Source: an uncultured Gammaproteobacteria bacterium (GTDB taxonomy: Bacteria > Patescibacteriota > Microgenomatia > UBA12405 > JAHJSD01). From it: a DNA stretch of 58,351 nt. Shown here one piece after another: positions 584 to 57,734 of this stretch. Within the stretch, counting starts at the first letter, position 1. Each line of letters begins with the position of its first letter. The stretch is taken from NCBI GenBank assembly GCA_964468355.1, contig CAYXSV010000036.1, positions 1-58,351 on the forward strand. The letters run 5' to 3'. Made by a program: the position numbers and the translations under genes. The notes beneath the pieces are model-generated. The model was not told the DNA's origin. It made no database searches and saw only the letters and a program-made list of their open reading frames with translations.

Positions 584-1729
584 ATGAAAAAAATGGATGT
601 TGATGAAAAATTGAATTTGATCACCAGAAACTGCGAAGAAATAATGACCGAAGAAGATCTTCGGCAATTAATTAAATCCAACACTAAACTAAATCATTAC
701 ATCGGGTTTGAAATTTCCGGCATGGTTCATCTGGGTACCGGCCTAATGAGTATGGGCAAAATCGCTGATTTTTTACAAGCCGGTGTCAAATGTAATGTTT
801 TATTGGCTGACTTTCACTCATATTTAAATAATAAACTTAGCGGTAATTGGCATAATATACGCCGGGCAACCGACTCTTATTTTAAGCAAGGCCTAATTGC
901 GTCTTTAAAATGTTTTGACATTAATGTTGACCAGGAAATATCAAAAGGCAATTTGAAGTTTATCATTGGCAAAGATCTGTACAAAGAAAATCTTATCCAC
1001 TGGGAAACATTTATGGAAGTCGGTAAACATATTACTTTAGCTAGAAATTTAAGGTCAATTTCTATAATGGGAAAAAAAGAAGGAAAAAGCGTTGACATGG
1101 CAACTCTTTTTTATCCGCCGTTACAAGTTGCCGACATTTTTACTTTGCAGGCAAATTTAGTCCACGCCGGAATTGATCAACGTAAAGCCCACGCCAACGC
1201 CCGCGATATTAGTCAAAAATTAACAATTAATCCTCTTAAAAACAACCAAGGACAAGTCATTTCACCGGTTGCCGCTCATCATAATACTATCGCCGGTTTA
1301 GAAGGACCGAAAACCAAGAAAGAAACCGGCGACGAGTTAAAAATGAGTAAATCAAAACCTAAATCAGCTATATTTGTACATGACACACCGAAAGAAGTAA
1401 AAGAAAAAATCAAATCAGCTTATTGTCCGCCTAAAGAAATCGAGTTTAATCCGATAATCAATTGGGTGGAAACTTTGATCTTTTGGGGAGCGGAGAAGGT
1501 GGAAAAGGGATTAAAAATTAGTAGAGACAAAAAATACGGCGGAAACCTCGAATATCAGAAAATTAACCAGTTGAAAAAAGATTATCAAGCCGGAAACTTG
1601 CACCCTTTGGACTTAAAACACGGCGTAGCCGACTGGCTGATTAATAAACTGAAACCGGCCAGAGAACATTTTCAAAAAGGAGAAGCAAAAGAAGGACTAG
1701 AATTAATGAGAAAATTAGTTAATGGTTAA
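584..1729 (+). CDS. tyrS: Tyrosyl-tRNA synthetase, archaeal/eukaryotic-type
   Basis: YIGFEISGMVHLGTG (HIGH-like) and KMSKSKP (KMSKS) motifs. KIKSAYCPP...NPI...KYGGNL...LHPLDLKHGVA resembles my recollection of the Methanocaldococcus-type TyrRS layout. Confidence 0.88.
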   Translation: MKKMDVDEKLNLITRNCEEIMTEEDLRQLIKSNTKLNHYIGFEISGMVHLGTGLMSMGKIADFLQAGVKCNVLLADFHSYLNNKLSGNWHNIRRATDSYFKQGLIASLKCFDINVDQEISKGNLKFIIGKDLYKENLIHWETFMEVGKHITLARNLRSISIMGKKEGKSVDMATLFYPPLQVADIFTLQANLVHAGIDQRKAHANARDISQKLTINPLKNNQGQVISPVAAHHNTIAGLEGPKTKKETGDELKMSKSKPKSAIFVHDTPKEVKEKIKSAYCPPKEIEFNPIINWVETLIFWGAEKVEKGLKISRDKKYGGNLEYQKINQLKKDYQAGNLHPLDLKHGVADWLINKLKPAREHFQKGEAKEGLELMRKLVNG

Positions 1730-1750
1730 CAGCAAACAGTGAATAGTGAT
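1723..1750. repeat. Heptad array (TGGTTAA CAGCAAA CAGTGAA TAGTGAT), solo arm
   Basis: 7-nt periodicity. 1725-1749 is near-identical to 40609-40633. Covers the tyrS stop codon and the next gene's GTG start. Confidence 0.75.
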
Positions 1751-9365: not shown

Positions 9366-9372
9366 TATTTTT

Positions 9373-9401
9373 AAGTTAACATCATTTTAATTTAATGTCA
9401 A
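9373..9401 (-). promoter_or_regulatory. Candidate promoter TTGACA-17-TAACTT (TGT-extended), 7 nt from the recombinase ATG
   Basis: The minus strand reads TTGACA ttaaattaaaatgatgt TAACTT aaaaata ATG. No SD sequence. Confidence 0.35.
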
Positions 9402-9422
9402 GATTGTGCGACGTAGAAAAAA

Positions 9423-9486
9423 AGTAATCAGTAATTAGTAATTGGTAATTAGTAATTATTTCAAAATAGTTAGTAATTTAGTAATT
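9423..9486. repeat. Heptad array AGTAATC AGTAATT AGTAATT GGTAATT AGTAATT ... AGTAATT TAGTAATT
   Basis: 7-nt tandem periodicity. Same word family (reverse complement) as 43578-43612. Confidence 0.85.
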
Positions 9487-10228
9487 TAACAATGTAATAA
9501 TAACCACTTTACCCTATCTATAGATATAAAATCATTAGAGCCATTCTAAGCGGCTTTTTAAAATATAGCTGTGTAATCGGTCTTCAGTCAATCACCTCTT
9601 TTAAAAAATTAACTAAAAAACATGAATTTCTGACTAATTTTTTGTTTAGAGTAGTGGTTGAGTGGTTAAGTAGAAAAGTTTAATTAAGAAACCGAAATTA
9701 AAAGAAGTATAAAACTGCAAATTAAATAAATCTACTTTTTATTTTTATTTTTTTATATTTTAATTTTAATTTATTTAATTTATTTTTTTGTTTAAAACCA
9801 ATTTCCTAGCCCACCATTATTTATCGCGTCGCAAAAGAAATATTGTGCGACATATAAGAAAAGTGCTTTAAAAAAAGATGAATAATCACCTATTAAGAGA
9901 AGGTCACTAAATTACTTAATAATTATAATAAAATTAGAACTTTAATTCCATTTAGGATTAATTTATAGAGATTAGTGGCTAAAGAAGCAAATGCCTTTTA
10001 AGAAGGGGTTAATAATTAGTTATCCACAATAAAGTAAAACTTTTTCGCGTCCTACTCAGTTTTCGCTTATCATTAGATAGACTAGCAATCAAATTTAATG
10101 ACTGCTATTTGTGAAAAGTATCCTATAATTTTCACAGATGGGATATTATATTATAGGATAATAGAAGGTTTTATTATAGGTTAATTTTTAACCCCTCTCC
10201 CCTACCTCGACTAGTTATAAGAAAAATA

Positions 10229-16313: not shown

Positions 16314-16355
16314 AAATGTTAAATGATAAATGTTAAATGTTAAATATTAAATAAT
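16314..16355. repeat. Heptad array AAATGTT AAATGAT AAATGTT AAATGTT AAATATT AAATAAT
   Basis: Six tandem 7-mers in the divergent intergenic region. Confidence 0.85.
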
Positions 16356-19062: not shown

Positions 19063-19093
19063 AATTTAAGTGTGCGATCGCATAGATAAATTT
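19061..19093 (+). repeat. 33-nt perfect direct repeat copy 1 (AAAATTTAAGTGTGCGATCGCATAGATAAATTT) containing the palindrome TGCGATCGCA
   Basis: Identical to 19796-19828. Confidence 0.95.
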
Positions 19094-19120
19094 GACTATT
19101 ATGGGGTTTTGAGGTATGAA
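19092..19120 (+). promoter_or_regulatory. Candidate promoter TTGACT-17-TATGAA, 6 nt from the ATG at 19127
   Basis: The -35 overlaps the end of repeat copy 1. No SD sequence. Confidence 0.3.
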
Positions 19121-19126
19121 TAAAGT

Positions 19127-19804
19127 ATGAGAAAAAGGGAATCTAAACTTCTTAAAACTCTTCGTTTAATAGAAGACCTGTTAATTTTATCGTCTGATTA
19201 TTTTGATAAAGATATAAGAAATTTTCCTGATTTAGAAGACTGGCTTTACGCCGGAGTCAAATCAACTTCCAACTACTTTGTTCAAAAAGGCGTACTTAAC
19301 CCAGATTTATCTTTTCGCAAAAAACCAAAATCGGTCTTAAGATTAATTGAAAACCCATGGGACGGTAAATGGAGGTTTATCGTTTATGATGTCCCCCAAG
19401 AACATAAAGTAATTAGAAGCTTAATCCGCAGACGGCTTAAAGAGTGGGATTTTAAGCTTTTTCAAAAATCTATTTGGTTTTCTCCGCTACCGCTAACTAC
19501 CGAGATTTTAAAACTAGATAAACAAATTGATGATACCGATTATCTAAGCGTTATAGAAGGGAAAATACACAGAGACAACCCGCGAAAATTGATTAAAGAA
19601 AAATGGGCAGTTGACCAATGGAAAAACAACGCCCTATACTGGATGGAAGAAAACAGAAAAATCTCAAAAATGGATGCTAAAAATCAAGAAGCTTTTTGGA
19701 CACTAATTTCTGAACATCCAAAAATACCTTTAGAGCTATTACCAAAAAATTGGCCTTTAAAAGATATCTTTGAAACTTTCACTAAAAGAAAATTCAAAAT
19801 TTAA
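19127..19804 (+). CDS. PaaX-like / Cas2-fold domain regulator-like protein
   Basis: WDGKWRFIVYDVPQEHKVIRSLIRRRLKEWDFKLFQKSIWFSP matches the W-x-G-x-W...YD[IV]P...R..L...GF..LQ.S[VI]W pattern of PaaX/Cas2-like domains. Confidence 0.55.
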   Translation: MRKRESKLLKTLRLIEDLLILSSDYFDKDIRNFPDLEDWLYAGVKSTSNYFVQKGVLNPDLSFRKKPKSVLRLIENPWDGKWRFIVYDVPQEHKVIRSLIRRRLKEWDFKLFQKSIWFSPLPLTTEILKLDKQIDDTDYLSVIEGKIHRDNPRKLIKEKWAVDQWKNNALYWMEENRKISKMDAKNQEAFWTLISEHPKIPLELLPKNWPLKDIFETFTKRKFKI

Positions 19805-19828
19805 GTGTGCGATCGCATAGATAAATTT
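19796..19828 (+). repeat. 33-nt perfect direct repeat copy 2
   Basis: Identical to 19061-19093. Contains the stop codon of the 19127-19804 ORF. Confidence 0.95.
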
Positions 19829-19859
19829 AGATGTTATAGGATGTGGGGATCGATTTATA

Positions 19860-29220: not shown

Positions 29221-29394
29221 TCAGTTTCCTTTTTTTAATGCTTTCTTTTTCTCATATCTTTTCTGAGACGGTTTGACAAACTCCTGTCTATCCCGGATAT
29301 CGTCAATTATATTAGTCTGTTTGATAAGTTGATAAAACCGGTTAAGCATATCATGTATTGATTCTCCTTTTTTTCTTTTAACCACAATTGGCAT
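29221..29394 (-). CDS. rpsU: Ribosomal protein S21 (57 aa; below the ORF-track cutoff)
   Basis: Hand translation: MPIVVKRKKGESIHDMLNRFYQLIKQTNIIDDIRDRQEFVKPSQKRYEKKKALKKGN, with a TGA stop. S21-like pattern and position upstream of yqeY. Confidence 0.85.
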   Translation of the reverse strand: MPIVVKRKKGESIHDMLNRFYQLIKQTNIIDDIRDRQEFVKPSQKRYEKKKALKKGN

Positions 29395-29424: not shown

Positions 29425-29506
29425 CGTAACATGAAACACGTAACCCGTAACACGAAATCCCAAAAAATATTATATGTTACATGTTACTTGTTATTTGTCA
29501 CGTTAC
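29425..29506. repeat. Empty heptad hairpin unit 1: left arm CGTAACA TGAAACA CGTAACC CGTAACA CGAAAT, 15-nt loop, right arm ATGTTAC ATGTTAC TTGTTAT TTGTCAC GTTAC
   Basis: The arms are imperfect reverse complements. The left arm (29425-29458) is repeated exactly at 29553-29586. Confidence 0.85.
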
Positions 29507-29552
29507 TTTTAGTTTAACAAAGAATTATGTGAAGGACAATAGTTAAAAAAAA

Positions 29553-29621
29553 CGTAACATGAAACACGTAACCCGTAACACGAAATAAAAAAAGATTTTG
29601 CATGTTACTTATTACGTTAAC
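29553..29621. repeat. Empty heptad hairpin unit 2 (identical 34-nt left arm; shorter right arm ATGTTACTTATTACGTTAAC overlapping the stop codon of the 29617 gene)
   Basis: Perfect 34-nt direct repeat of 29425-29458. Confidence 0.85.
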
Positions 29622-32689: not shown

Positions 32690-33994
32690 TTAAAATTTAG
32701 GCAACTCACTATACCACTGTTCAACATCATCTTCACTTAAAATACCGTCGCAATTAAAGTCACCGTATAAATTATCACTGCCTAACTTATAATCATCGTA
32801 CCAGCCGGCAAAATCTTCCATATTAACTGTTCCGTCACAGTCGTAATCGGCTTTAGACTCAATTTTAGTTCCGTCCGGACACGGCTTGCACCCGGTTTGG
32901 GGCTCCGTCGTGGCTGTCGGCTCCGGTGTATTAGTTGCACTCGGCGGCATCGTGGCTGTCGGTTCCGGCGTATTGGTTGCACTTGGCGGCATCGTGGCTG
33001 TCGGCTCCGGTGTATTGGTTGCACTCGGCGGTCTTGTGTTTGTCGGTGTCGGCGTACTTTCCGTACAATCCTGGACAAATACCGCTGTCCCTCCGGTATA
33101 ATCAATATCAACCGACTTTCCGTCTTCAGTAGTCCCGGCAACAATAGATTTACTCTCATTCAGATTAAAATTAAACCGCCCCGGTTCAGTGCCGGTAATC
33201 TCAACACCAATTCTAAAGCTCCTCGGCGGGTTACCACCGGCATAAAGCGAAGTTACAAGCAGCTCATTATTTCTGGCATCATAACCTCCCTCCCCCCACT
33301 TACTATCAAAAGTTACATTTTTAATTGTGCTTCTGGTCGAATCATAATCAAAATACAACTGCAAACCGGACATGCTTTTTCCTGAATCGCCTGAAACGGT
33401 TATTGTTCCCGTTTCTTGTGTGCAAAGATGCAAACTGCTCGGCTGGGAAATTGTAATTGTCTCACCTGCCGGACTGTCCGTCGGAGTGGAAGCCGGTGTA
33501 TTAGTATTAACCGGACTATCACAATCAACCACCTTTACCGTGGTATCACCGGATGCACTAATATTCATACTGTCATCTTCAAGTCCACTCATAAAACTTT
33601 TCCCGGTTAATAACCTAAAACTTGAATTGCCTAAACTTTTACCCCTTAAAGTAACATTAAATTGAATATTTTTTTGAGGATTTGCAAACATATGAGAACT
33701 AACACTTAAATCACCCTCAAAAATACTCCAAGTTTTGTTGACATCTTCAATCTCGACTTTACTATCATCAAATCCAAAGTCGAAAGCATAACTGGTTATT
33801 TTCTGGTTTGAACTGCCGCTTACCGCAAAAGTCTCCGTATCTCCCAAACACACTTCAACTTCTGAGGGAAGCTGAATATTCCCACCGCCTGCCGCCCCTC
33901 TTCTTGTTTCTAAATTTTCTCGAACAACATAACCGGCGAAGACAAGACTTAGCAAGCCAACTATACTGATAAAAGCTAATTTTAAGTTATTCAT
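32690..33994 (-). CDS. Protein with two Cys-stapled cohesin-like modules, a PT-repeat linker and a Cys-framed dockerin-like C-terminus
   Basis: N-terminal TM helix plus ENLETRRGAAGG. Modules VEVCLG...VVDC and HLCTQ...VQDC. Three copies of PPSATNTPEPTATM. CKPCPDG...DYDCDGTVNMEDF...DFNCDGILSEDDV. Confidence 0.65.
   Translation of the reverse strand: MNNLKLAFISIVGLLSLVFAGYVVRENLETRRGAAGGGNIQLPSEVEVCLGDTETFAVSGSSNQKITSYAFDFGFDDSKVEIEDVNKTWSIFEGDLSVSSHMFANPQKNIQFNVTLRGKSLGNSSFRLLTGKSFMSGLEDDSMNISASGDTTVKVVDCDSPVNTNTPASTPTDSPAGETITISQPSSLHLCTQETGTITVSGDSGKSMSGLQLYFDYDSTRSTIKNVTFDSKWGEGGYDARNNELLVTSLYAGGNPPRSFRIGVEITGTEPGRFNFNLNESKSIVAGTTEDGKSVDIDYTGGTAVFVQDCTESTPTPTNTRPPSATNTPEPTATMPPSATNTPEPTATMPPSATNTPEPTATTEPQTGCKPCPDGTKIESKADYDCDGTVNMEDFAGWYDDYKLGSDNLYGDFNCDGILSEDDVEQWYSELPKF
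32910..33031. repeat. 42-bp tandem repeat, about 2.9 copies (encodes the PPSATNTPEPTATM linker)
   Basis: Units at 32910-32951, 32952-32993 and 32994-33031 with a few substitutions. Confidence 0.9.
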
Positions 33995-34050
33995 ATACGT
34001 ATATTAATTAAACAATACAACATTTTTAAAAAAAATAAAAGTCCCAATTT

Positions 34051-36006
34051 TTAATCACAATTAGAATGTTCCGTTGGACACCATCGGGCATACCATATTT
34101 GATGATCCGAAACAGTAATATCCCCGTCGCAATCATAATCTCCATATAATTCATCTTTATCTACTCTCTGTCCGTCTAATTTAACTTTAGAATACTGCTG
34201 TGCCCATCGGCCGTAATCGACATTTTGTTTACCGTCGGTATCACAATTAAAACTAGATGTTCTAACAGGAGCAAAACTGCCGTCCGGACACGGCTTGCAT
34301 CTTTCTTCCCCACCCCCGACAACAATTTTCTGACTCAATAGGTTATTTTCTTCGTTAACTTCCTCAATCTGGTCTTCACGATCAACCCATACATAAACAT
34401 CGTGTTCGCCGGCTTCATCAAAGACATAATCATACGACCAGTCAAACTTTTTATCCGGTATCAACCAAACATGATGACCGTAATATGAAGTTTCCGGTGT
34501 TGCTTGCGTCGGGGGCTGTTGCTCCGGGTCTATATATAAATAAGTAGTAAAATCCCTAGTTGCCATTTGACCAATATTTTTAATCTCGGCCGTTATACTT
34601 ACTTCATCTCCGGGCTGCGGATTAGACGGGCTGTAACTAATACTAGAAATTGTCAAATCCGGCATTCTGTCATCCTCCACACAGGCCGAATCCGGGGCCT
34701 CAAATTCTATTAAATAAGAACCCTCGGGTAGTTCGCTTCTGCTCCATCTAGCATTGGGAATATAAGGATTCCAATACTCGCCGTAGGTTATCGCCGAATG
34801 CGGCGGATTGCCCCTTAATTGCAAAAATTCATCATTTTCACATTTTTCTCTTTCACACAACCCAACATATAATCCATTTCTTTCATCTGTACTAATTATG
34901 GTAGTCATTTTAGCTCCTATTCTTGAATCTTCTAAAACCGGCTCAAAAGGGTTTGGCGGCCAAGCTACATACCAGGTACTTACTTCAATATCCGCTATAC
35001 TTCCGTCCTCACATACCGCCGCTGTCTCTATATCCCACGATAAACTCTCTGAAACTATTGATACTACCCGGTTACAGTTACTACACTCAGCCGTAGCATT
35101 ATTACAAGTTCCAACTGGATTACCTGTACACCAATTATCCATTTCGTCATATACATTAGCTACAACATAATATTTACCCTGGGAAACACCTGAAACATCC
35201 CACTCTGCTTCCCAACCGTCACTGCCATTATTATCAGTGTCAATTACCGTCCAATTATTACTGTCACAGTAATAACTCTCAGTAGCATTCTCCTTGTATT
35301 CTGCGTAGGCAAATGTTACTTCTTTTAAATCGCCGTCCTCATCACTCGCTGTTGCCTTCACCAATGTCTTATCCTCACTAATAACGGAATTTACGGATAA
35401 ATTAGTGCATTCAGGTACATTTTCGCCTCCTGAGGCCGGCGTATTGGTTGGGTCAACCGGTGGAGCAGGCGTAGGCGTTGGGTCAACCGGCGGTGCAGGT
35501 GTGCTTGTCGGCTCTTCACCACAAATACAATCGGTGTCAGTTAAACAATCCGGGTTTCTGCAAACACCTGAACTTGATATTATTTCTCTTTCAAAATCAG
35601 TTGTTTCAATTAACTCTTGTGCTAACTGATCACTTTCTCCCATCACAACTCCGCCGCTGACCGTCTGACAGTTTCCATCTGGGCCACATACGCAATCCTC
35701 TCCTTCCGGAGGCATCACATCCGGACAGTAAACACCAGTATTCCTTGGTACACAATCTTGTCCGCACCACATACAATCCCTGTCTGAACTACAGCCCTCT
35801 TTATAACAAACTAAACCGCTTCCACACTGTGAATCGTCTGAGCAAGGTTGATTACAATCACTGACAGCGGCCTTGCGGGTTTCCTGCCTTTGCTGAACTA
35901 AGTTGATTGCCGCCGGTAAAGCAATTCCTAAAATTAGTAAACCCAAAATTATCGGCAATTGAGACATGCCCTTTTGCTGATATTTTTTATTTTTGATTAA
36001 ATTCAT
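34051..36006 (-). CDS. Large secreted cysteine-rich modular protein (Cys-knot modules, Ig-like, CARDB-like, Cys-framed dockerin-like C-terminus)
   Basis: N-terminal TM helix plus QQRQETRKAA. CNQPCSDDSQCGSGLVCYKEGC... modules. CARDB-like PDLTISSISYSPSNPQPGDEVSITAEIKNIG. The C-terminal 82 aa CKPCPDG...WCPTEHSNCD is a paralog of the 36546 gene's C-terminus. Confidence 0.65.
   Translation of the reverse strand: MNLIKNKKYQQKGMSQLPIILGLLILGIALPAAINLVQQRQETRKAAVSDCNQPCSDDSQCGSGLVCYKEGCSSDRDCMWCGQDCVPRNTGVYCPDVMPPEGEDCVCGPDGNCQTVSGGVVMGESDQLAQELIETTDFEREIISSSGVCRNPDCLTDTDCICGEEPTSTPAPPVDPTPTPAPPVDPTNTPASGGENVPECTNLSVNSVISEDKTLVKATASDEDGDLKEVTFAYAEYKENATESYYCDSNNWTVIDTDNNGSDGWEAEWDVSGVSQGKYYVVANVYDEMDNWCTGNPVGTCNNATAECSNCNRVVSIVSESLSWDIETAAVCEDGSIADIEVSTWYVAWPPNPFEPVLEDSRIGAKMTTIISTDERNGLYVGLCEREKCENDEFLQLRGNPPHSAITYGEYWNPYIPNARWSRSELPEGSYLIEFEAPDSACVEDDRMPDLTISSISYSPSNPQPGDEVSITAEIKNIGQMATRDFTTYLYIDPEQQPPTQATPETSYYGHHVWLIPDKKFDWSYDYVFDEAGEHDVYVWVDREDQIEEVNEENNLLSQKIVVGGGEERCKPCPDGSFAPVRTSSFNCDTDGKQNVDYGRWAQQYSKVKLDGQRVDKDELYGDYDCDGDITVSDHQIWYARWCPTEHSNCD
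35447..35506. repeat. 30-bp tandem duplication encoding the TPAPPVDPT(P/N) linker
   Basis: GTTGGGTCAACCGGTGGAGCAGGCGTAGGC / GTTGGGTCAACCGGCGGTGCAGGTGTGCTT. Confidence 0.85.
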
Positions 36007-36521
36007 TTAAATATACTCATTATCCATTTCCATAACTTTAAAAACTCACTATTTTTTTCACAGTTAATTACTTTAACATCACTTTCTCCGGAAACACTGA
36101 TGTTTATGTCTTCGTCTTCTATTCCTCCCATCCAGCTGTCAGTTTCTAGAAATTTAAATTTTGAATTTCCAATTTTGGCACCTTTTAAGTTAACATTAAT
36201 CTGGAAATCTTTTTGGGGGTTGTTAAATATATGAGAACTCACTTTTAAATCACCATCTTTAATGCTCCACGTGCGATCAACATCTTCTATCTCCACCATA
36301 TTTTGATCAAAATCAAAAGCAAACACGTAACCGGTTATTTCTTGATCAGCCCGGCTTGTAACAGTTAATTTTTTAATTTCACCTAAACAGACTTCGACCT
36401 GAGGAGGAAGAATAATTTTTCCCTCAGCTTTAACCGGTCTTACAAAAAATAAATCTTGTTTAATAATAAGGTGAAGAAATATCAAAACTATTAAGAAAGA
36501 ACCGTATTTGAGTTTTTTCAT
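36003..36521 (-). CDS. Secreted Cys-stapled cohesin-like single-module protein (paralog of the N-terminal module of the 32690 gene)
   Basis: PPQVEVCLGEIKKLTVTSRADQEITGYVFAFDFDQNMVEIEDVDRTWSI...VKVINC aligns with PSEVEVCLGDTETFAVSGSSNQKITSYAFDFGFDDSKVEIEDVNKTWSI...VKVVDC. ATGA overlap with the next gene. Confidence 0.55.
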   Translation of the reverse strand: MKKLKYGSFLIVLIFLHLIIKQDLFFVRPVKAEGKIILPPQVEVCLGEIKKLTVTSRADQEITGYVFAFDFDQNMVEIEDVDRTWSIKDGDLKVSSHIFNNPQKDFQINVNLKGAKIGNSKFKFLETDSWMGGIEDEDINISVSGESDVKVINCEKNSEFLKLWKWIMSIFK

Positions 36522-36545
36522 AAAATATAAAGTAGCTTAAATATG

Positions 36546-38873
36546 TTAATCACAATTTGAATGTTCTGTCGGACACCATCTGGCATACCATATTTGATGA
36601 TCAGAAACATTTATTTCTCCGTCACAATTGTAATCTCCGTATAATTGGTTACTAGGCACTTGTTTACGTTCAATTACAACCGCGTAATACTGCTGAGCCC
36701 ACCGACCGTAGTCAACATTCTCTTTACCATTCGTATTGCATTTAAAACTGGATGTATTTTGAGAAGCGAAACTACCATCCGGACACGGTTTACAACCTTT
36801 TCCGGGTCCCGGCGGTACAGTTGTCGGCTCAGATTCAGAAATACATTTACTATAATCGCTTGCCCATTTATAGCCGGTCGGCGGATAAAGCTCACAATTT
36901 ACAGCTCCGGAAGTGCCCTCTGTCTTTCCGCACCCTGAATGTCCCGGGCAATAATCAGATACACATTGAACAGCACAATTATCTTTTGTTGGACTACCAC
37001 AATCTGCATCTGTTTGACAAGTTTGTCCTGGTCTTACCGTTGGCGAAAGAGTATTTGTCGCCCGCGGCGCTCTTGTCGGAGTATTTGTCGGTGTTTCTTC
37101 ACATGCACTATCAGGACATTGACGATAACCACCGGGATTACTCGTATACCAATCACAACCATAACCACAAGTTGACGTTACACAATAGCAAATTTCTTCT
37201 GGTGGTGTTGGTGTATTTTCCGGATTTTCACATCTATCCGCCCAGCAAACTTCAATCGGGAAATAGGAATGCGGACCACAAGTTAAACCCTCCTTACACT
37301 CGTTATTTTGTAAGCATGTATCGCCACAATCTTTATTCCCGGCAGACGGCGTATTTGTCGGTGTTTCTTCCGGGATACAACATACCTCATTGTGGCCGCG
37401 GCAATCAGTAGGATCCACTGCCTTTTCACCAGTTTTACACCCTCCTACTCGACAAACCCCAGCATCAGAATCTCCCAGATAACCGCAAGTTTGTAATTTT
37501 GGTTCAGGCGTATTCGTTGGTTCAGGTTCACAACAATATTTATATCCTCCACCAAAATCTACTCCACACTTTTTAGCATACCAAACTTGACCTCCACAAT
37601 TTGCCGGTGGCACACATGACTCCTCTGGATCACAATCTACAAATTCCGGTTCACAAGCACATCCACCACCCACCATCTCACAACTCTCACCTGAAGGACA
37701 ATCCCCTACACACTCATTGCCATTCGGTGTCGACATCATACGGCATACACTTGGTGTATTTGTTGGAGCTCTAGGTGTATTTGTTGGCCGTGGCCCACAA
37801 TAACAGACAGTACCAACACAGTAATAACTGTTCTTGCAACGACTGCAATTAGGGAGAACAGGGTCAGTATATGTTTGACACCTGGTTCCATCTTGCAAGC
37901 CGGCTGACGGTGTAGGCGTAAAATTATAACAAGTACAACATGAGTCAACATCTCGACTTGTCGGGCTTGAACAGTGTCCGCCATCAACACCATGAACTTT
38001 TTGGCATGCTTCTGTACATGAAGAATATTCACCTAAACAACAAATACAATTATCGCAGGCCCGACATGTACCAGGCATTCCTTGCCTTAAATCACAATAT
38101 TTTGATTGACATTCGGAATTAGAACTACATTGCCAGCCATTTGGCTTCGGCGTACTTGTCGGCTGTGGTTTTGTTCGGCATGTACCAGGCATCCCCTGAC
38201 TTAAATCACAATAACTAGAACAACATTCCGAGTTGCTACCACACTGCGAACCATTGGATTTACAACTTGGTGTATTTGTTGCTCGCGGTCTTGTTGTATT
38301 TGTCGGTTGAGGTTTTGGGGTATTGGTCGGATAAGGTGAACAATTTGCATTACATGTACCTTCACTGGAATAAGTTCCGTCATAACCTTGGACACAATAC
38401 CCCAGAGAACGAGAACACTTCCATTTTAAATCAACTTCTCCATAACACTCACATTCTCCGTCAATAGTTGGATGGGGTTTACATTCCCTACCCGAAGCAC
38501 AGGTACCTACACATTGAAATCCTGCCGGAGTAAATTCTCCTCTGCACGTTTCTTCATAAGGCGTTGCCGTCGCTGGCGGTGGAGCTGTCTTACATTCGGC
38601 ACATATACTTGAATGCTGAGTACATTTTGGGCCACAATAACCTCTATCTACCCAATTACCGTCAACACACTCATAATCATGGCAATCACCTTGATTACAA
38701 TGTGTGCCCGTCAAGCCACCACATGTACTTGCCGCTTCTTTTCTTGTTTCCTGGCTTTGCTGGGTTAATCTTAATGCCGCCGGTAAAGCGACTCCCAAAA
38801 GTAGCAAACCAATTATAATCGGAACCTGCGCACTTCCGCGTTGATTAAAAATATTTTTAATTCTTGTTAACAT
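36546..38873 (-). CDS. Hyper-cysteine-rich (about 88 Cys in 775 aa by hand count) modular secreted protein with PTNTP linkers and a Cys-framed dockerin-like C-terminus
   Basis: N-terminal TM helix plus QQSQETRKEAA. About 10 Cys modules, each with an even Cys count, separated by P/T-rich linkers. Internal tandem module NG[SW]QC[GS]SNSEC.S.YCDL.QGMPGTCR x2. C-terminal CKPCPDG...WCPTEHSNCD. Confidence 0.65.
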   Translation of the reverse strand: MLTRIKNIFNQRGSAQVPIIIGLLLLGVALPAALRLTQQSQETRKEAASTCGGLTGTHCNQGDCHDYECVDGNWVDRGYCGPKCTQHSSICAECKTAPPPATATPYEETCRGEFTPAGFQCVGTCASGRECKPHPTIDGECECYGEVDLKWKCSRSLGYCVQGYDGTYSSEGTCNANCSPYPTNTPKPQPTNTTRPRATNTPSCKSNGSQCGSNSECCSSYCDLSQGMPGTCRTKPQPTSTPKPNGWQCSSNSECQSKYCDLRQGMPGTCRACDNCICCLGEYSSCTEACQKVHGVDGGHCSSPTSRDVDSCCTCYNFTPTPSAGLQDGTRCQTYTDPVLPNCSRCKNSYYCVGTVCYCGPRPTNTPRAPTNTPSVCRMMSTPNGNECVGDCPSGESCEMVGGGCACEPEFVDCDPEESCVPPANCGGQVWYAKKCGVDFGGGYKYCCEPEPTNTPEPKLQTCGYLGDSDAGVCRVGGCKTGEKAVDPTDCRGHNEVCCIPEETPTNTPSAGNKDCGDTCLQNNECKEGLTCGPHSYFPIEVCWADRCENPENTPTPPEEICYCVTSTCGYGCDWYTSNPGGYRQCPDSACEETPTNTPTRAPRATNTLSPTVRPGQTCQTDADCGSPTKDNCAVQCVSDYCPGHSGCGKTEGTSGAVNCELYPPTGYKWASDYSKCISESEPTTVPPGPGKGCKPCPDGSFASQNTSSFKCNTNGKENVDYGRWAQQYYAVVIERKQVPSNQLYGDYNCDGEINVSDHQIWYARWCPTEHSNCD

Positions 38874-40599: not shown

Positions 40600-40634
40600 T
40601 AGTTAATAGTTAACAGCAAACAGTTAATAGCGAA
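40600..40634. repeat. Heptad array, left arm: TAGTTAA TAGTTAA CAGCAAA CAGTTAA TAGCGAA
   Basis: 7-nt periodicity. Imperfect reverse complement of 41023-41057. Confidence 0.85.
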
Positions 40635-40644
40635 ATATAAATAT

Positions 40645-41022
40645 ATGGGAAAAATAAATTATTTTACCGACTTAAAAGCTTGGCAAATAAATCACCAAGT
40701 AGCTTTAAAAATATATAAATTAACGGAAAATTTTCCATCAAATGAAAAATACGGCCTAACTGATCAGCTACGAAGAGCAGCATCTTCTGTTACTGCTAAC
40801 ATTGCAGAAGGTTGGGGACATTACCATTTTGCTAATCGCTTAAGATTTTATTACAACGCCCGTGGGTCAAATTGTGAGGTGCAAAACTTTCTTATTTTAG
40901 GAAAAGATTTGGAATATATCGATAAATCTAAGTACAAAAAAATTGTAGAAGAAGTTTTCGAAGGATTTAGAGTATTAAACGGTTTGATTAAATCAGTCAA
41001 AAAACTCAATAAAAACAAGTAA
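40645..41022 (+). CDS. Four-helix-bundle protein (23S rRNA intervening-sequence protein / Avd-like family)
   Basis: FTDLKAWQ...ALKIYKLT..FP..EKYGLTDQLRRAASSVTANIAEG...F..RL.FYY.ARGS..EV matches the family pattern. Confidence 0.85.
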   Translation: MGKINYFTDLKAWQINHQVALKIYKLTENFPSNEKYGLTDQLRRAASSVTANIAEGWGHYHFANRLRFYYNARGSNCEVQNFLILGKDLEYIDKSKYKKIVEEVFEGFRVLNGLIKSVKKLNKNK

Positions 41023-41057
41023 TCACTGTTCGCTGCTCGCTATTTGCTTTTAACTTT
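41023..41057. repeat. Heptad array, right arm: TCACTGT TCGCTGC TCGCTAT TTGCTTT TAACTTT
   Basis: The reverse complement reads AAAGTTA AAAGCAA ATAGCGA GCAGCGA ACAGTGA, the same word family as the left arm. Confidence 0.8.
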
Positions 41058-42130: not shown

Positions 42131-42194
42131 AATGTTCAAATATTCGAATGTTCAAAAAACTTTTGAGTATTGAAGTTTTGAACTTTTGAACATT
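42131..42194. repeat. Empty imperfect hairpin built from TGTTCAA/TTGAACA-type words (terminal 10-bp perfect IR AATGTTCAAA/TTTGAACATT)
   Basis: Left arm 42131-42160, right arm 42161-42194, lying between the rseP start and the frr stop. Confidence 0.8.
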
Positions 42195-42769: not shown

Positions 42770-42818
42770 TGGCTGAGGGCTGAATGCTAAAGGCTAAAGG
42801 CTAAAGGCTAAATGCAAA
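42770..42818. repeat. Heptad array GGCTGAG GGCTGAA TGCTAAA GGCTAAA GGCTAAA GGCTAAA TGCAAAT
   Basis: Seven tandem 7-mers. Confidence 0.9.
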
Positions 42819-43577: not shown

Positions 43578-43612
43578 TTACTTATTACCTATTACTTATT
43601 ACTAATTACTGA
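43578..43612. repeat. Heptad array TTACTTA TTACCTA TTACTTA TTACTAA TTACTGA spanning the tsf-rpsB spacer and the last codons of rpsB
   Basis: Reverse complement of the AGTAATT word family seen at 9423-9486. Confidence 0.85.
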
Positions 43613-44392
43613 ATCCGCTATTTCCCGAACTAATAATTGTATCGACCGGGTTGCGTCATCATTAGCCGGTATCGGATAATCAACCAAATCCGGATTACTG
43701 TTGCTGTCAACAATTGCTACAACCGGCATATTCATTTGACGGGCTTCTTGGACAGCCGTTGATTCCTCTTCAATATCAACAATAAAAAGTGCTCCAAAAA
43801 GTTCTTCCAGGTCAGCAATTCCGCCGACTAGCCGGTCTAAACGGGTTATTTCTCTTCTAACAACTGCCTGTTCTTTTTTAGGCCGGTCTTCATACTTACC
43901 TTCTTTCCATTCTTTTCTTAACTCATTTAGCTTATCAATACTGTTTTCTTTAATCTGGTCCCAATTAGTAATTGTTCCTCCCAACCAGCGATTGGTAATA
44001 AACGGCACCCCTACCCTTTTTGCTTCTTCTCTTATAATTTCAGACGCTTGACGTTTAGTACCGACAAAAACTATTTTCTTTCCTTTTTCAGTTAAGTCAG
44101 AGACAAACTTTTTTGCTTCATCTAATTTTTCTTTTGTCTTGGCCAAATCAAAAACAGCAATACCATCTTTAATAGCATAAATATTTTTTTTAGCATTAGG
44201 ATGAACCTTTGACCTTTTGTGGCCAAAATGGCACCCCGCTTCAAGAAGATCTTTTAAAGTTGCTTCCTTTGGTTTCTGGCTGTTTTTAGCCTTAGGCCTT
44301 GAGCCCTTTACTTTTTTTTGTTTTTCACTTTTGACTTTGGTTTTTTTACCTTCAGCCTTTTTTTTCTTCTTTGCCATCCTTTTTTCCTCCAC
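43592..44392 (-). CDS. rpsB: Ribosomal protein S2 with a Lys-rich N-terminal extension
   Basis: LLEAGCHFGHKRSKVHPNAKK.IY, FVGTKRQA, and RWLGGTITNW motifs. Confidence 0.93.
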   Translation of the reverse strand: MEEKRMAKKKKKAEGKKTKVKSEKQKKVKGSRPKAKNSQKPKEATLKDLLEAGCHFGHKRSKVHPNAKKNIYAIKDGIAVFDLAKTKEKLDEAKKFVSDLTEKGKKIVFVGTKRQASEIIREEAKRVGVPFITNRWLGGTITNWDQIKENSIDKLNELRKEWKEGKYEDRPKKEQAVVRREITRLDRLVGGIADLEELFGALFIVDIEEESTAVQEARQMNMPVVAIVDSNSNPDLVDYPIPANDDATRSIQLLVREIADSVISNK

Positions 44393-44475: not shown

Positions 44476-44524
44476 AACCAACCTTAATTTAACAACTAAT
44501 AATTAAAAACTGCTTTAAATTTAC

Positions 44525-44547
44525 GATGCATCGATACATCAATGCAT
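44525..44547. repeat. Inverted repeat, left copy (GATGCATCGATACATCAATGCAT)
   Basis: 16 nt are perfect and 21 of 23 nt match the reverse complement of 45064-45086. Confidence 0.9.
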
Positions 44548-44555
44548 CATAATTA

Positions 44556-45005
44556 TTACCTAAGCGGATTTTCAATATCTTTAAGCCATTTATTTTTGGC
44601 CTTTCTCCACTCAGTCCAATTACGATACTTAGGCGGCAGCGGACCATACTGAAAGGTATTCACCATATCAATAAAAAGATTTTTGACTTCATTTCTTAGC
44701 ATTATTTTATTCATCGCTTCTTTATGTGCTTTGCTCAAACTTTTCCACTTGTAATTAAGGCGTGTAATAGATGATGTACTCATTTTCAAAATTCCAGCTA
44801 TCTCGTCCTGAGGTATATTTTTTTCAAGCAAATAAAAAACTGCAAATCTTTTTGCCAACATCTTTCTTTCCGAATCAGTAAAAATTGCTTCAAAAAAATA
44901 CTTTGCTTTATCTTTAGATTTAACTTGAGCGAGCCCGGCTAAAAACAAAGAAATGATTTTATCTTGAAGTTCCCTTTTTAAATATCTCCCTGATACCGGC
45001 GGCAT
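44556..45005 (-). CDS. TrpR-like YerC/YecD-family helix-turn-helix protein
   Basis: FTDSERKMLAKRFAVFYLLEKNIPQDEIAGILKMSTSSITRLN resembles the YerC/YecD HTH region. Confidence 0.6.
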   Translation of the reverse strand: MPPVSGRYLKRELQDKIISLFLAGLAQVKSKDKAKYFFEAIFTDSERKMLAKRFAVFYLLEKNIPQDEIAGILKMSTSSITRLNYKWKSLSKAHKEAMNKIMLRNEVKNLFIDMVNTFQYGPLPPKYRNWTEWRKAKNKWLKDIENPLR

Positions 45006-45063: not shown

Positions 45064-45086
45064 ATACATCGATGTATCGATGCATC
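45064..45086. repeat. Inverted repeat, right copy (ATACATCGATGTATCGATGCATC)
   Basis: Partner of 44525-44547. Together they bracket the YerC-like gene. Confidence 0.9.
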
Positions 45087-49452: not shown

Positions 49453-49480
49453 ATTTAACATTTGACATTTAATATTTAAT
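49453..49480. repeat. Heptad array ATTTAAC ATTTGAC ATTTAAT ATTTAAT
   Basis: Same word family as 55282-55316. Confidence 0.8.
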
Positions 49481-49495
49481 TCCGAGGAAATAAAA

Positions 49496-49768
49496 ATGAA
49501 TAATAAAGAAAAAATAATCAGAACAGGTTTAGCAATTGGAATTGCTGGTATGTTAACCACTGCCTGCAACAGAACTACCTGTGAATTTAGAGGAAAAAAA
49601 TCCAGTCCGGGAGTAACCTTGGAGCTTAGAAGCATTGATGAAGAAAGCAGACAAATTACCAACCGTTCTATTTATAAATGCCAATCTGACGGTAATTGGG
49701 GTAAAAGTGATGCTTTATACGGCCAAAGGGTTGTAATATTAGAACCCGGCGAAAGCTTTGGTCAATAA
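49496..49768 (+). CDS. Small hypothetical secreted/lipoprotein-like protein
   Basis: SD GAGGA upstream, hydrophobic N-terminus ending ..TTAC. Confidence 0.35.
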   Translation: MNNKEKIIRTGLAIGIAGMLTTACNRTTCEFRGKKSSPGVTLELRSIDEESRQITNRSIYKCQSDGNWGKSDALYGQRVVILEPGESFGQ

Positions 49769-55281: not shown

Positions 55282-55316
55282 ATTTAACATTTACCATTTA
55301 TCAATTAACATTTGAA
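55282..55316. repeat. Heptad array, left arm: ATTTAAC ATTTACC ATTTATC AATTAAC ATTTGAA
   Basis: Abuts the start of the second four-helix-bundle gene. Complementary words occur at 55680-55707. Confidence 0.85.
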
Positions 55317-55317
55317 T

Positions 55318-55667
55318 ATGAAAGAAATAATAATAAAAAGAACTTTTGATCTCTCTTGTCAAACAATAGACCTAATAAAATTACTACCGAAAAACACAAC
55401 TAACTATGTACTAAGAAAACAATTGATCCGATCAGCTTCATCAATTGGAGCTAATTATCGTGAGGCGTTAGAGGCGGAAAGCAAAAGAGATTTTATTCAT
55501 AAATTGGCAATAAGTAAAAAAGAAGCACGTGAAACACTTTACTGGTTAGGACTTATACTCTACAATAATAAATCATTGGAAAAAATATTAGACCCTTAGT
55601 AAAAGAAGTCAAAGAGTTAGTCAAAATTTTCGCCAGCTCAATCAAAACAGGTAAAAAAAATAAATAA
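55318..55667 (+). pseudogene. Four-helix-bundle (IVS protein/Avd-like) gene interrupted by an apparent 1-nt deletion at about 55597
   Basis: Frame A (55318-55599) ends ...EKILDP*. A family-like C-terminus VKEVKELVKIFASSIKTGKKNK* continues in the next frame to 55667. The two parts together give a typical ~115-aa length. Confidence 0.55.
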
Positions 55668-55679
55668 AAATGATTTTCT

Positions 55680-55707
55680 TAAATGTAAAATATAAAATGA
55701 ACAAATG
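55680..55707. repeat. Heptad array, right arm: TAAATGT AAAATAT AAAATGA ACAAATG (runs into the topA ATG)
   Basis: The reverse complement gives CATTTGT TCATTTT ATATTTT ACATTTA, which matches the left-arm word family. Confidence 0.75.
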
Positions 55708-57711
55708 ACCAAATTAATAATCGTTGAATCGCCAACCAAAGCAAAAACAATCGGCCGATATGTTGACAAACAATTTAATATCGTTGCCACTATGGGTCAT
55801 CTGCGTGATTTGCCGAAAAGTAAATTCGGCGTAGAAATTGAAAAGAAAAACGGCGGCTTTCAGTTTGAACCAAACTATACCGTTGGTAAAAACAAACAAA
55901 AATATGCAGCTAAACTAAAAAAAGCGGCTGAAAAAGCAAGTGAAATTTATCTTGCTCCCGACCCCGACCGCGAAGGTGAAGCAATAGCGTATCACACTCA
56001 AAAAATACTCGAAGGTTCAAAAGCTCAAAAGTTCAAAAAAGATGCCTTTAAGAGAGTGACTTTTCATGAAATAACTAAAACTGCAATTCAAAAAGCAATG
56101 GATAACCCGGGAAAAATCGATATGGACTTGGTCGATGCACAACAAGCAAGAAGAATTTTAGACCGCTTGGTTGGATACACTCTTTCTCCGCTTCTGTGGA
56201 AAAAGATACGTCGAGGCTTGTCAGCCGGCCGGGTACAATCAGTTGCCGTCCGTTTAATTGTTGAACGAGAAAGGGAAATCGAAAAGTTTAAAGAAGAGAA
56301 ATTTTACAAAGTTTGGGCCAGTTTTGATAAAAAATTTGTTGCCAATCTGGTTAAAGTCAACGGTGATTCAGTTTCCGTCCGCAAAAAAACAGACCTTTTC
56401 GCCGGCACACATATTTCAACGAAAACAATCCACGACACACCTGAAAAAACTGAAAAAGTTATCAAGGACCTTAAACCCGAGTTTAAAATCACAAAAATTA
56501 GTAAAAAAGACAAGCTTCGTTATCCATTCGCCCCCTACACCACTTCTACTCTAACTCAAGATGCCGCTTATAAATTCCATTGGTCAGCTAAATACACAAT
56601 GAGTATTGCTCAGTCCTTATTTGAAAACGGCCATATTACTTACCACCGAACCGATTCAACAAACTTAAGCAAAGATGCTATTTTTAAGGCCAGAGATATT
56701 ATTAAGGATAAATACGGCAGTAAATACCTTCCTGAGAAACCTAAATTCTATAAAACTAAATCCAAAATCGCTCAGGAGGCACATGAGGCCATCCGACCTA
56801 CGGATGTAAGTGAAAAGTTAAAAGTGAAAAGTGAAAAGTTAAATGAGAAAGAAAAAAAATTATATGATTTAATTTGGAAAAGAACCATTTCTTGCCAAAT
56901 GGCACCAGCGAAATTAGCTAAAACCCGGGTTGATTTAGAAAATGGCAAATATCTCTTTCGCGTTCGCGGCAGTCAAATTAAGTTTGACGGATTTACTAAA
57001 GTTTATCCAGTTACTTTAACAGAAAACTTACTCCCTAAACTTGAAGAAGGTCAAAAAATATCTTCTGATACTTTCGGCATCACCGAGCACGAAACTAGAC
57101 CGCCGGCCCGTTATTCTGAAGCAAGCTTAATCGCTGAACTTGAGGATTACGGTATCGGACGACCGTCAACTTATGCTCCAATTATTTCTACTATCCGCAG
57201 TCGTAACTATGTTGACAAAGAAAAACGACAGTTTAAACCAACGGTTATCGGCACGGTTACCAGTGATTTTCTAGTTAAACACTTTAAGGACATTATGAGC
57301 TTGGAATTTACAGCAGAAATGGAAGATTCTTTGGATGATATTGCCGCCGGTGAAAAAAAATGGCAACCGGTGCTCTCTGAATTCTGGGGACCTTTTCATC
57401 AAAAAACCGAAAAGGTCGAAGAAGAAGCTGACCGGGTTAAAATGCCGGTAGAAAAAACCGATAAAAAATGTCCCGAATGCGAAAAAGGAAACCTGGTAAT
57501 CCGAGTCGGCAAATACGGCAAATTTTTGGCCTGCGACCGGTTTCCGGAATGTAAATATACCGCCGATTTTAATAAAAAAGCCGGATTTGAATGCCCGAAA
57601 TGCGAAGCCGACGTAATCATTAAAAAGACTAAAAAAGGAGCTAAATTTTTCTCCTGCTCCCGTTGGCCATCTTGCGACTGGTCTTCATGGAAAAAGCCGA
57701 AAAAAGCGTAA
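55705..57711 (+). CDS. topA: DNA topoisomerase I with C-terminal C4 zinc ribbons
   Basis: Toprim LIIVESPTKAKTI, DPDREGEAIA, active-site region GHITYHRTDS, and CPECEKG...C..FPEC / CPKCEAD...CSRWPSC. Confidence 0.96.
   Translation: MTKLIIVESPTKAKTIGRYVDKQFNIVATMGHLRDLPKSKFGVEIEKKNGGFQFEPNYTVGKNKQKYAAKLKKAAEKASEIYLAPDPDREGEAIAYHTQKILEGSKAQKFKKDAFKRVTFHEITKTAIQKAMDNPGKIDMDLVDAQQARRILDRLVGYTLSPLLWKKIRRGLSAGRVQSVAVRLIVEREREIEKFKEEKFYKVWASFDKKFVANLVKVNGDSVSVRKKTDLFAGTHISTKTIHDTPEKTEKVIKDLKPEFKITKISKKDKLRYPFAPYTTSTLTQDAAYKFHWSAKYTMSIAQSLFENGHITYHRTDSTNLSKDAIFKARDIIKDKYGSKYLPEKPKFYKTKSKIAQEAHEAIRPTDVSEKLKVKSEKLNEKEKKLYDLIWKRTISCQMAPAKLAKTRVDLENGKYLFRVRGSQIKFDGFTKVYPVTLTENLLPKLEEGQKISSDTFGITEHETRPPARYSEASLIAELEDYGIGRPSTYAPIISTIRSRNYVDKEKRQFKPTVIGTVTSDFLVKHFKDIMSLEFTAEMEDSLDDIAAGEKKWQPVLSEFWGPFHQKTEKVEEEADRVKMPVEKTDKKCPECEKGNLVIRVGKYGKFLACDRFPECKYTADFNKKAGFECPKCEADVIIKKTKKGAKFFSCSRWPSCDWSSWKKPKKA
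56810..56844. repeat. Heptad array GTGAAAA GTTAAAA GTGAAAA GTGAAAA GTTAAAT inside the topA coding sequence
   Basis: Encodes SEKLKVKSEKLN in a region that I recall being variable among TopA proteins. Confidence 0.85.
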
Positions 57712-57734
57712 CATGTAACATGTAAGACGAAATA
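57707..57734. repeat. Heptad array CGTAACA TGTAACA TGTAAGA CGAAATA (solo arm; overlaps the topA stop codon)
   Basis: Same word family and same CGAAAT terminus as the 29425 and 29553 left arms. Confidence 0.85.

Follow-up and report, generated by a model that had tools for sequence, protein, structure and literature searches.

Two inverted arrays of degenerate 7-nt units (heptads) enclose the gene for a small four-helix-bundle (4HB) protein at positions 40600-41057 of the DNA analysed here, a 58-kb stretch of 37% G+C from contig CAYXSV010000036.1 (the window). The window derives from a genome of the Patescibacteria (candidate phyla radiation): the named organisms nearest to it by protein similarity are Patescibacteria, and a Woesebacteria assembly is the top genome hit. 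The gene (gene 1) belongs to the PF05635/TIGR02436 family and lies between a GH39 gene and a convergent rseP gene. The whole unit, cassette 1, has the following parts.

40600..40634, unstranded: left (5') arm of cassette 1, heptads TAGTTAA TAGTTAA CAGCAAA CAGTTAA TAGCGAA
40645..41022, plus strand: 4HB gene 1, 125 amino acids, PF05635 / TIGR02436
41023..41057, unstranded: right (3') arm of cassette 1, with five heptads whose word is that of the left arm, inverted and complemented

The left arm runs from 2 nt past the GH39 stop codon to 10 nt short of the ATG of gene 1, and the right arm from immediately 3' of the gene 1 stop codon to 4 nt short of the rseP stop. Both spacers consist almost wholly of heptads, five per side and inverted, making a unit of 458 nt with arms of 35 nt each. 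The reverse complement of the right arm reads AAAGTTA AAAGCAA ATAGCGA GCAGCGA ACAGTGA. A first-pass annotation, made from the letters of the window, had described these arrays, and every unit it quoted is present where it was placed. It had also claimed that the arms form an imperfect long inverted repeat, and the predicted arm duplex bears this out: its energy is -25.9 kcal/mol (z -5.4), better than in all 60 shuffles of the right arm, which give -10.3±2.9. In the folding analysis that the annotation had suggested, the arms close both the minimum free energy and the centroid folds of the whole 481-nt RNA, with a predicted stem of 6-bp helices separated by a 1×1 mismatch at each seventh position. 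The fold z-score of the whole RNA is not significant (-0.57), as expected because the interior is coding sequence. Cassette 1 thus has the terminal inverted repeat of an intervening-sequence (IVS) element, a long stem around an open reading frame (ORF).

The PF05635 family takes its name from ORFs in the intervening sequences of 23S rRNA. Two crystal structures of its proteins ('S23 ribosomal protein', IVS protein) are known to us, and we know of no function for them outside diversity-generating retroelements. Relatives are abundant, 1,793 being returned by one search and 5,606 by another. Gene 1 matches PF05635 with an E value of 3.9e-34 (117.5 bits, cut-off 33.8) and the NCBIfam model TIGR02436 with 2.4e-33 (114.6 bits, cut-off 24); in Pfam and NCBIfam its protein matches only these and, weakly, bAvd, with no nuclease or recombinase motif. 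The AlphaFold model (predicted local distance difference test score, pLDDT, 94.3) has four helices and superposes well on XCC0516 of Xanthomonas campestris (2GSC; TM-score 0.85-0.94, root-mean-square deviation 1.3 Å) and on BT_0352 (2RLD; 0.74-0.85), and more distantly on the retroelement protein Avd. XCC0516 is the only solved homologue found by sequence (E 5e-14, five chains). The entries 2GSC, 2RLD and 4DWL (Avd) are each deposited with five chains, and the title of a 2006 paper by Lin et al. reportedly speaks of five bundles. By analogy, the product of gene 1 is likely to be a homopentamer. The motif R-x3-S-x3-N-x2-E reported for the family (PMC3936711) is present, with R44, S48, N52 and E55 invariant in an alignment of 32 sequences. 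The ratio of non-synonymous to synonymous substitution (dN/dS) is 0.05-0.16 against orthologues, similar to that of the neighbouring genes, and the 4HB ORF is therefore under purifying selection.

An identical 4HB protein is found on seven contigs from other samples. The six that were compared (L001-L006) are 99.5-99.96% identical to the window and show no variation in array copy number, their differences lying elsewhere. The window differs from L001-L003, otherwise 99.7% identical to it, by a 30-nt indel at the rpsB 5' end (44276-44306). Two related species, L007 and L008, whose 4HB proteins are 77% and 74% identical to that of gene 1, keep the GH39-4HB-rseP order with arrays on both sides. 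Left and right arms count 5 and 5 units in the window, 5 and 5 in L007, and 8 and 4 in L008, with altered unit variants; unit number thus varies between related species, as it does in heptanucleotide simple sequence repeats (SSRs). The conserved order and arrays argue that the gene is a vertically inherited resident whose arms stay in place yet turn over. In nucleotide similarity the ORF is a mosaic: the L007 copy shares about 90% identity with the window in its 5' half and 95-98% with L008 in its 3' half. Identity in the flanks is 70-75%, and the breaks fall at the arms. A mosaic decoupled from the flanks in this way is a sign of exchange or gene conversion limited to the cassette.

The bracketing of 4HB genes by heptad arrays is a real feature, specific to the PF05635 family across phyla. 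A profile of 32 relatives yielded 80 loci, one genome per species, at 31-67% G+C, from the Patescibacteria, Omnitrophota, Elusimicrobia, Bacteroidota, Gemmatimonadales, Acidiferrales and others. A gene was scored as bracketed when a period-7 array lay no more than 80 nt from both of its ends. Arrays on both sides were found for 33 of 77 4HB genes and for 20 of the 796 remaining genes of these loci (Fisher p 6e-25), a strong and specific form of the association between arrays and PF05635 genes that the first-pass annotation had proposed to test. With 4HB genes defined by hidden Markov model (HMM), the counts are 38/88 and 34/1044 (p 8e-27), arrays lying on both, one or no side of 38, 25 and 25 4HB genes and of 34, 212 and 798 other genes. 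Many of the 34 bracketed other genes are neighbours that share a spacer with a 4HB gene. The odds ratio is 23-29 for arrays beside 4HB genes; no bracket enrichment is seen with periods 5, 6 and 9-12, and only a slight one with period 8. In four loci (L013, L017, L053, L079), the sole two arrays in 10-20 kb are those flanking the 4HB gene. A search of viral contigs for a second sample yielded a single locus.

The arm words differ between cassettes (CGTAATT, CAGTAAC, GGGGCTA, ACTCGAA and TAGGACN are examples), and one cassette, with TAGTGAA/CAGTGAG, has a perfect 28-nt inverted repeat. Within a cassette the arms match each other: when ranked against cross-cassette pairs, 50 of 83 same-cassette scores pass the 95th percentile and 27 the 99th, with the direct-orientation control at background and duplex energies in agreement. 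Arms typically have 4-5 units, the left array ending a median of 13 nt before the ATG and the right array beginning at or over the stop codon. Neighbouring genes tend to be co-directional with the 4HB gene, both upstream (64/74, 86%) and downstream (63/75, 84%), the baseline being 69%. The gaps to these neighbours have medians of 60 nt upstream and 55 nt downstream and therefore leave no room for a promoter. Purine-richness of the 5' arm (36/42 cassettes) was considered as a sign of a role in the sense RNA and rejected as uninformative, because an inverted repeat shows that polarity on both strands. In L057, L065, L069, L077 and L084, mostly Bacteroidota, direct repeats flank the 4HB gene, with direct-orientation scores of 37-67.

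A second cassette, which is decaying, lies between dprA and topA in the window.

55282..55316, unstranded: left arm of cassette 2, ATTTAAC ATTTACC ATTTATC AATTAAC ATTTGAA
55318..55667, plus strand: 4HB gene 2, frameshifted; PF05635 E 4.8e-19, profile positions 4-80 of 106
55677..55704, unstranded: right arm of cassette 2, TCTTAAA TGTAAAA TATAAAA TGAACAA, degenerate

Its left arm lies between the dprA stop (55279) and the ATG of gene 2 (55318), and its right arm abuts the topA ATG at 55705. The first-pass annotation had taken 55318-55667 for a second family member in the same arrangement. Its membership of the family stands (69 bits with PF05635 and 80.3 bits with TIGR02436, above the cut-offs), as do the flanking arrays. 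A single open frame does not: the frame is open to 55599, and three-frame translation makes the C-terminal helix readable in another frame to 55667. Gene 2 is probably a pseudogene, or its frameshift a sequencing error. The orthologous cassette in the relative L089, whose DprA is 83% identical to that of the window, is intact and has a different word, GAGTTAT. The cassette is present in the window and L089, but in the more distant relatives L092, L102 and L104 nothing separates dprA from topA.

A comparable history can be read at accB-accC. Orthologues of XCC0516 lie between these genes in Xanthomonas, within inverted GGGAATC-type arrays. The Stenotrophomonas accB-accC spacer is 10 nt and has no array, and that of X. 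albilineans holds a 128-nt gene-less hairpin with heptad-like arm remnants. The presence/absence comparison suggested by the first-pass annotation thus gives outgroup spacers of 0-10 nt, free of arrays, at both dprA-topA and accB-accC. These empty sites and the X. albilineans remnant show that the arms arrive with the gene and that a cassette can decay to a gene-less hairpin. The Xanthomonas word is a published one: 186 GGGAATC arrays, including 70 inverted pairs, have been catalogued with no link to a gene drawn (PMC4692102), and the word is exactly that which flanks the XCC0516-type gene. In X. sacchari (L109) a second inverted GGGAATC pair, downstream of accC at 4805-5057, surrounds about 190 nt with no 4HB similarity; this segment may be an emptied cassette, or may hold other cargo.

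The same protein family is found in the loop of 23S rRNA IVSs with an S23p/PF05635 ORF, in Coxiella burnetii and Leptospira. A terminal inverted repeat of 28 bp bounds the Coxiella IVS, which is 428-444 nt long. Tandem GACAGAT heptamers, two or three depending on the strain, precede the ATG of S23p, and the stem is cleaved by RNase III at the first repeat (PMC4990558). Cassette 1 is like this IVS in size (458 nt), in having terminal inverted repeats (about 28-35 nt in the two systems), in the heptamers of variable copy number just 5' of the ATG, in the lack of a promoter of its own and in having been acquired by insertion. The two differ in that both arms of the window cassette are plainly whole heptad arrays, and in that purifying selection acts on the window ORF, the Coxiella ORF being reportedly in decay and untranslated. 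Moreover, the cassettes of the window and of the 80 or more related loci lie between protein-coding genes, unlike rRNA IVSs. The sarcin-ricin loop motif of 23S rRNA was found in 0/110 loci, and an Rfam search of the window returned only a tRNA and no rRNA. Because of this location the window element does not qualify as an rRNA IVS, yet to judge from its sequence it is built like one.

We think it probable, on balance, that 40600-41057 is a promoter-less IVS-type cassette inserted outside rRNA, whose arms pair on read-through RNA and from which RNase III frees the cassette. Arms and ORF would form one inserted unit, co-directional with its neighbours in a transcribed spacer between host genes and consisting of the gene for a 4HB protein, presumably pentamer-forming, inside two inverted arrays of 4-5 heptads. 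On a read-through transcript, the two arms would pair into a long-range stem of 28-35 bp. RNase III, by analogy with the 23S rRNA cassettes of the same family, would cut this stem, so that a cassette RNA of about 430 nt is released and parted from the host message. The arms would turn over fast through slippage of whole units, with either selection for pairing or concerted evolution keeping the two arms of a cassette alike. The core of this was already in the first-pass annotation, which had 4HB genes residing in IVS-like inverted-repeat cassettes, and it has gained from the enrichment in the 80 loci, the empty outgroup sites and the design of the Coxiella IVS.

Several observations weigh against such a cassette or limit what it accounts for. 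Cutting by RNase III is an experimental finding from Coxiella, and we infer it for the window cassette, which is known here from sequence, through homology of layout. The Coxiella protein is itself reported as not made, its ORF decaying (PMC4990558). A pure RNase III role does not explain the 7-nt length of the unit or the conservation of the ORF. About 28% of the sampled 4HB genes have no detectable array, and at some Bacteroidota loci the flanks are direct, not inverted. The duplex of cassette 2, for which the first-pass annotation had also supposed complementary arms, is no better than shuffles (z -0.9) and gives no long stem. The 159 arm mismatches in 36 cassettes comprise 25 G·U, 44 A·C and 90 others, with no excess of sense-strand wobble and hence no such sign of selection on a stem in the sense RNA. 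Complementarity is no lower when the units of the right arm are put in permuted order (median p 0.53, Wilcoxon p 0.08; a stricter version of the test retained 2 cassettes), which suggests that a word shared by the two sides is preserved rather than a stem paired base by base. The heptads have a conserved core and free positions, which also tempers the view of the arms as an RNA stem.

The absence of a G·U excess, the indifference to unit order and the free heptad positions fit a reading in which it is the presence of the same word on both sides that matters. The arms may be arrays of cognate binding sites for the encoded pentamer, one heptad per subunit, in the manner of a TRAP-like ring on tandem repeats. 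The protein would then bind its own flanks, as RNA or DNA, for self-regulation, the gene-less arrays would be its regulon, and the complementarity of the arms would be a by-product. We hold this as a tentative alternative, less likely than the IVS-type cassette, with which it is compatible. The 4-5 units per arm can be set beside the five chains in each of 2GSC, 2RLD and 4DWL; Avd is part of an RNA-protein complex (8UB7); the mismatches, besides lacking a wobble bias, are not compensated; and the ORF is under purifying selection. Protein similarity also correlates with word similarity (Mantel p 0.003), which fits co-inheritance or co-evolution, but the correlation is confounded by shared descent of the hosts and their GC content, and the binding is putative. 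The word has changed wholly between the orthologous cassettes of the window and L089, despite the closeness of their DprA proteins. Gene-less arrays share the cassette word (allowing at most one mismatch) in 27% of cases within a locus versus 7% between loci, and there are examples in the window, yet many arrays in a locus lack the word of its cassette.

The resemblance to Avd of the diversity-generating retroelements lies in the fold, a remote homology, the pentameric state (presumed for the 4HB protein) and association with nucleic acid. Unlike Avd, the 4HB protein scores only 20.5 bits with PF22296 (cut-off 40) and 21.2 bits with NF033474 (cut-off 80), and no reverse transcriptase or template/variable repeat was found among the adjacent genes (GH39, RseP/M50 protease, DprA, TopA), which were the part of the window scanned. 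PF05635 genes have also been found inside cas operons of several types (PMC3936711).

A further possibility, and in our view an improbable one, is modelled on REPINs, the hairpin-forming elements made of repetitive extragenic palindromic (REP) sequences, and on RAYTs, the REP-associated tyrosine transposases. The 4HB cassette would be the autonomous mobile copy, the arrays and hairpins of the genome its non-autonomous derivatives, and the protein would help to generate or spread them. In both systems a single gene lies between inverted copies of a dispersed short repeat, as it does in the window and in Xanthomonas with its 186 GGGAATC arrays and 70 inverted pairs, and both show vertical inheritance, here at one locus over three species, and many gene-less copies in spacers. 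The empty sites without arrays and a near-identical solo arm copy 39 kb from cassette 1 would also be expected. Unlike a RAYT, the 4HB protein lacks an HUH/Y1 catalytic domain, being a small helical bundle; it matches PF05635, has no nuclease or recombinase motif and does not qualify as a transposase. The repeats are tandem arrays of a degenerate word rather than the one fixed palindrome of REPINs, and slippage can build such arrays without a dedicated enzyme. Several different words occur within one 58-kb window, and no target-site duplication was seen.

Inverted repeats around a promoter-less gene are also the geometry of known invertible elements, and the arms might be recombination sites of a DNA switch that flips the gene on and off. 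This we reject as very improbable, because all seven copies of the locus from different samples are in the same orientation, 84-86% of cassettes run in the direction of their neighbours, the adjacent genes include no recombinase and the arm words lack the conservation expected of a recombinase site. Weaker still, and likewise rejected, is the notion that the arrays are ordinary slippage-prone heptanucleotide repeats of AT-rich spacers that lie beside 4HB genes by coincidence: although in many prokaryotes no other long simple repeats are as common as heptanucleotide ones (Mrazek 2007, as cited in PMC4679880), 11 of the 35 window spacers carry an array and copy number differs between species, it is contradicted by an enrichment within the same loci (odds ratio 23-29, p <1e-24) that holds where the sole arrays in 10-20 kb flank the gene and by arms that are inverted and matched.

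Heptanucleotide repeats in intergenic DNA have been described before, among them the short tandemly repeated repetitive (STRR) sequences of cyanobacteria, GGGAATC / GGGGAYT of Xanthomonas and Nostoc (Rehm 2015), TAACTGA, known in Beggiatoaceae, Cyanobacteria and Bacteroidetes (MacGregor 2015), and the long SSRs of Mrazek (2007). The window arrays are like these in their tandem 7-nt units, mostly in about 4 copies, in being strongly intergenic and often abutting start or stop codons, and in their lineage-specific words whose arrays differ in length between relatives; inverted pairs, too, are known in Xanthomonas. They are unlike them in specifically bracketing PF05635 genes, whereas those papers do not connect the repeats with a gene family, and the Patescibacteria are not among the lineages in which such repeats were described. 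The first-pass annotation had supposed the heptad architecture to be undescribed. This holds for the general tie of the PF05635 family to bacterial heptamer repeats, which appears to be new, no open-access full-text paper that links the two having been found; it does not hold for the repeats as such, given the precedents of the Coxiella IVS heptamers, GGGAATC and TAACTGA.

Two old puzzles, the function of PF05635 proteins and the heptanucleotide tandem repeats that have been described without a mechanism in cyanobacteria, Xanthomonas, Beggiatoaceae and Bacteroidota, may be one. In many bacterial genomes these repeats exceed all other long simple repeats in over-representation. A compact inserted cassette with the layout of an rRNA IVS is a concrete hypothesis that can be tested in Xanthomonas, which is culturable and offers genetics, a solved structure and public transcriptomes. 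The cassette nature would account for the presence of 4HB genes inside unrelated operons, such as accBC, dprA-topA and cas loci, and the neighbours of 4HB genes should therefore not be taken as functional partners. Genome annotation also gains a recognisable element, about 450 nt long. A bolder generalisation, which we regard as speculative and doubtful, is that PF05635 pentamers are the trans-acting partner of heptanucleotide repeats, at one heptad per subunit. The cassette would be an autonomous mobile or self-propagating element found from Patescibacteria to Xanthomonas, the gene-less arrays (STRR, GGGAATC, TAACTGA), unexplained since 1990, would be its derivatives, and rRNA IVSs would be copies that landed in rRNA.

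Beyond the two cassettes, heptad arrays recur throughout the window, as the first-pass annotation had noticed; Tandem Repeats Finder (TRF) lists period-7 arrays at all the sites it named.

1713..1749, unstranded: solo heptad array overlapping the 3' end of a Trp/Tyr-tRNA synthetase gene
9423..9488, unstranded: direct array of AGTAATT x5, then two 8-nt units, bordering an 860-nt ORF-free region
16314..16352, unstranded: solo array of AAATGTT x5.6, upstream of a promoter-like TTGACA-17-TATTAT site for the gene at 16421
29425..29621, unstranded: two tandem gene-less hairpins of CGTAACA-type heptads and their inverse, fold z -4.4 and -2.3
42131..42194, unstranded: gene-less hairpin of 7-8-nt units between frr and rseP
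42771..42818, unstranded: solo array of GGCTAAA x5-6, upstream of frr
43578..43610, unstranded: array of TTACTTA x4.7 (minus-strand word of AGTAA type), across the rpsB stop and up to the tsf start
49453..49479, unstranded: solo array of ATTTAAC x3.9 (TRF), its word identical to that of the cassette 2 left arm
56808..56850, plus strand: heptad array AAGTGAA / AAGTTAA with 21-nt periodicity, in frame inside topA
57707..57734, unstranded: short array CGTAACA TGTAACA TGTAAGA CGAAAT at the topA stop, of the word family of 29425

Our own lag-7 scan, run alongside TRF, found 13 period-7 arrays in the 35 spacers of the window (5,027 nt), compared with 0.4±0.5 in composition-matched shuffles (maximum 2 in 100 shuffles). 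They take up 576 nt, about 11% of the spacer sequence, and their density is about 22-fold higher in spacers than in coding DNA, which is the head-to-tail intergenic arrangement of 7-nt units seen in heptanucleotide SSRs (STRR or long SSR). Other periods are near expectation, except for 4 arrays of period 8. The earlier list of sites survives for the most part. The site at 42131-42194 is not a clean 7-nt array and is rather a hairpin of units of about 8 nt. Another, 56808-56850, lies inside topA, where it encodes SEKLKVK SEKLNEK; it fills a variable loop that is equally long in homologues and is therefore not an insertion.

The gene-less arrays had been taken for solo or decayed cassettes, and here the evidence is divided. 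In favour are the X. albilineans accB-accC hairpin and the solo array at 1713-1749, which matches the left arm of cassette 1, 39 kb away, at 89% identity along 37 nt and has the exact 16-mer GTTAACAGCAAACAGT in common with it; a near-identical array at this distance argues that arrays are copied around and do not only grow in place. Against the idea, a six-frame HMM search of the window found no 4HB pseudogene remnants beyond the two genes, and none beside other arrays. The frr-rseP spacer, moreover, stays gene-less in three species: the window, L007 and L008 each have there a hairpin of the same build (z -3.4, -3.8 and -5.4), its units wholly different between them (AATGTTCA, CATTGCTC and ATATTGCT). 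The paired hairpins at 29425-29621 lie upstream of rpsU (29221-29394, minus strand). Two small ORFs that adjoin heptad arrays, 1746-2075 (109 amino acids) and 49496-49768 (90 amino acids), are without a Pfam or NCBIfam match, and the second has weak arrays on both sides.

One other gene in the window, a TrpR/YerC-like gene at 44556-45005 (minus strand), is bracketed by arrays, at 44524-44548 and 45067-45086, of the palindromic 8-mer CGATGCAT. The two arrays are near-identical, with a duplex of -31.6 against -9.3±2.6 kcal/mol. It was considered as a case of the same kind and rejected: the units are palindromic and, unlike the heptads, conserved in sequence in the related species L007, so that these period-8 arrays look like operator sites.

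The 860 nt without an ORF of at least 30 amino acids, at 9366-10228, are AT-rich, with a T-rich tract at 9733-9794, and adjoin a gene for an XerC/D-type recombinase (8412-9365). A DnaA-box-like TTATCCACA lies at 10020-10028, and TTGTGCGAC is present at 9404-9412 and 9843-9851. The region has no Rfam match at gathering score; it could be a replication origin or an unannotated RNA. Elsewhere, two direct repeats of 51 nt, 86% identical (19055-19105 and 19790-19840), flank a gene at 19127-19804 and contain the palindrome GTGCGATCGCA. Finally, 32690-38873 holds a cluster of large secreted proteins, cysteine-rich and proline/threonine-rich and with internal repeats. A tandem repeat of 42 nt lies in it at 32908-33031, and its segments 34051-34304 and 36546-36799 are paralogous.

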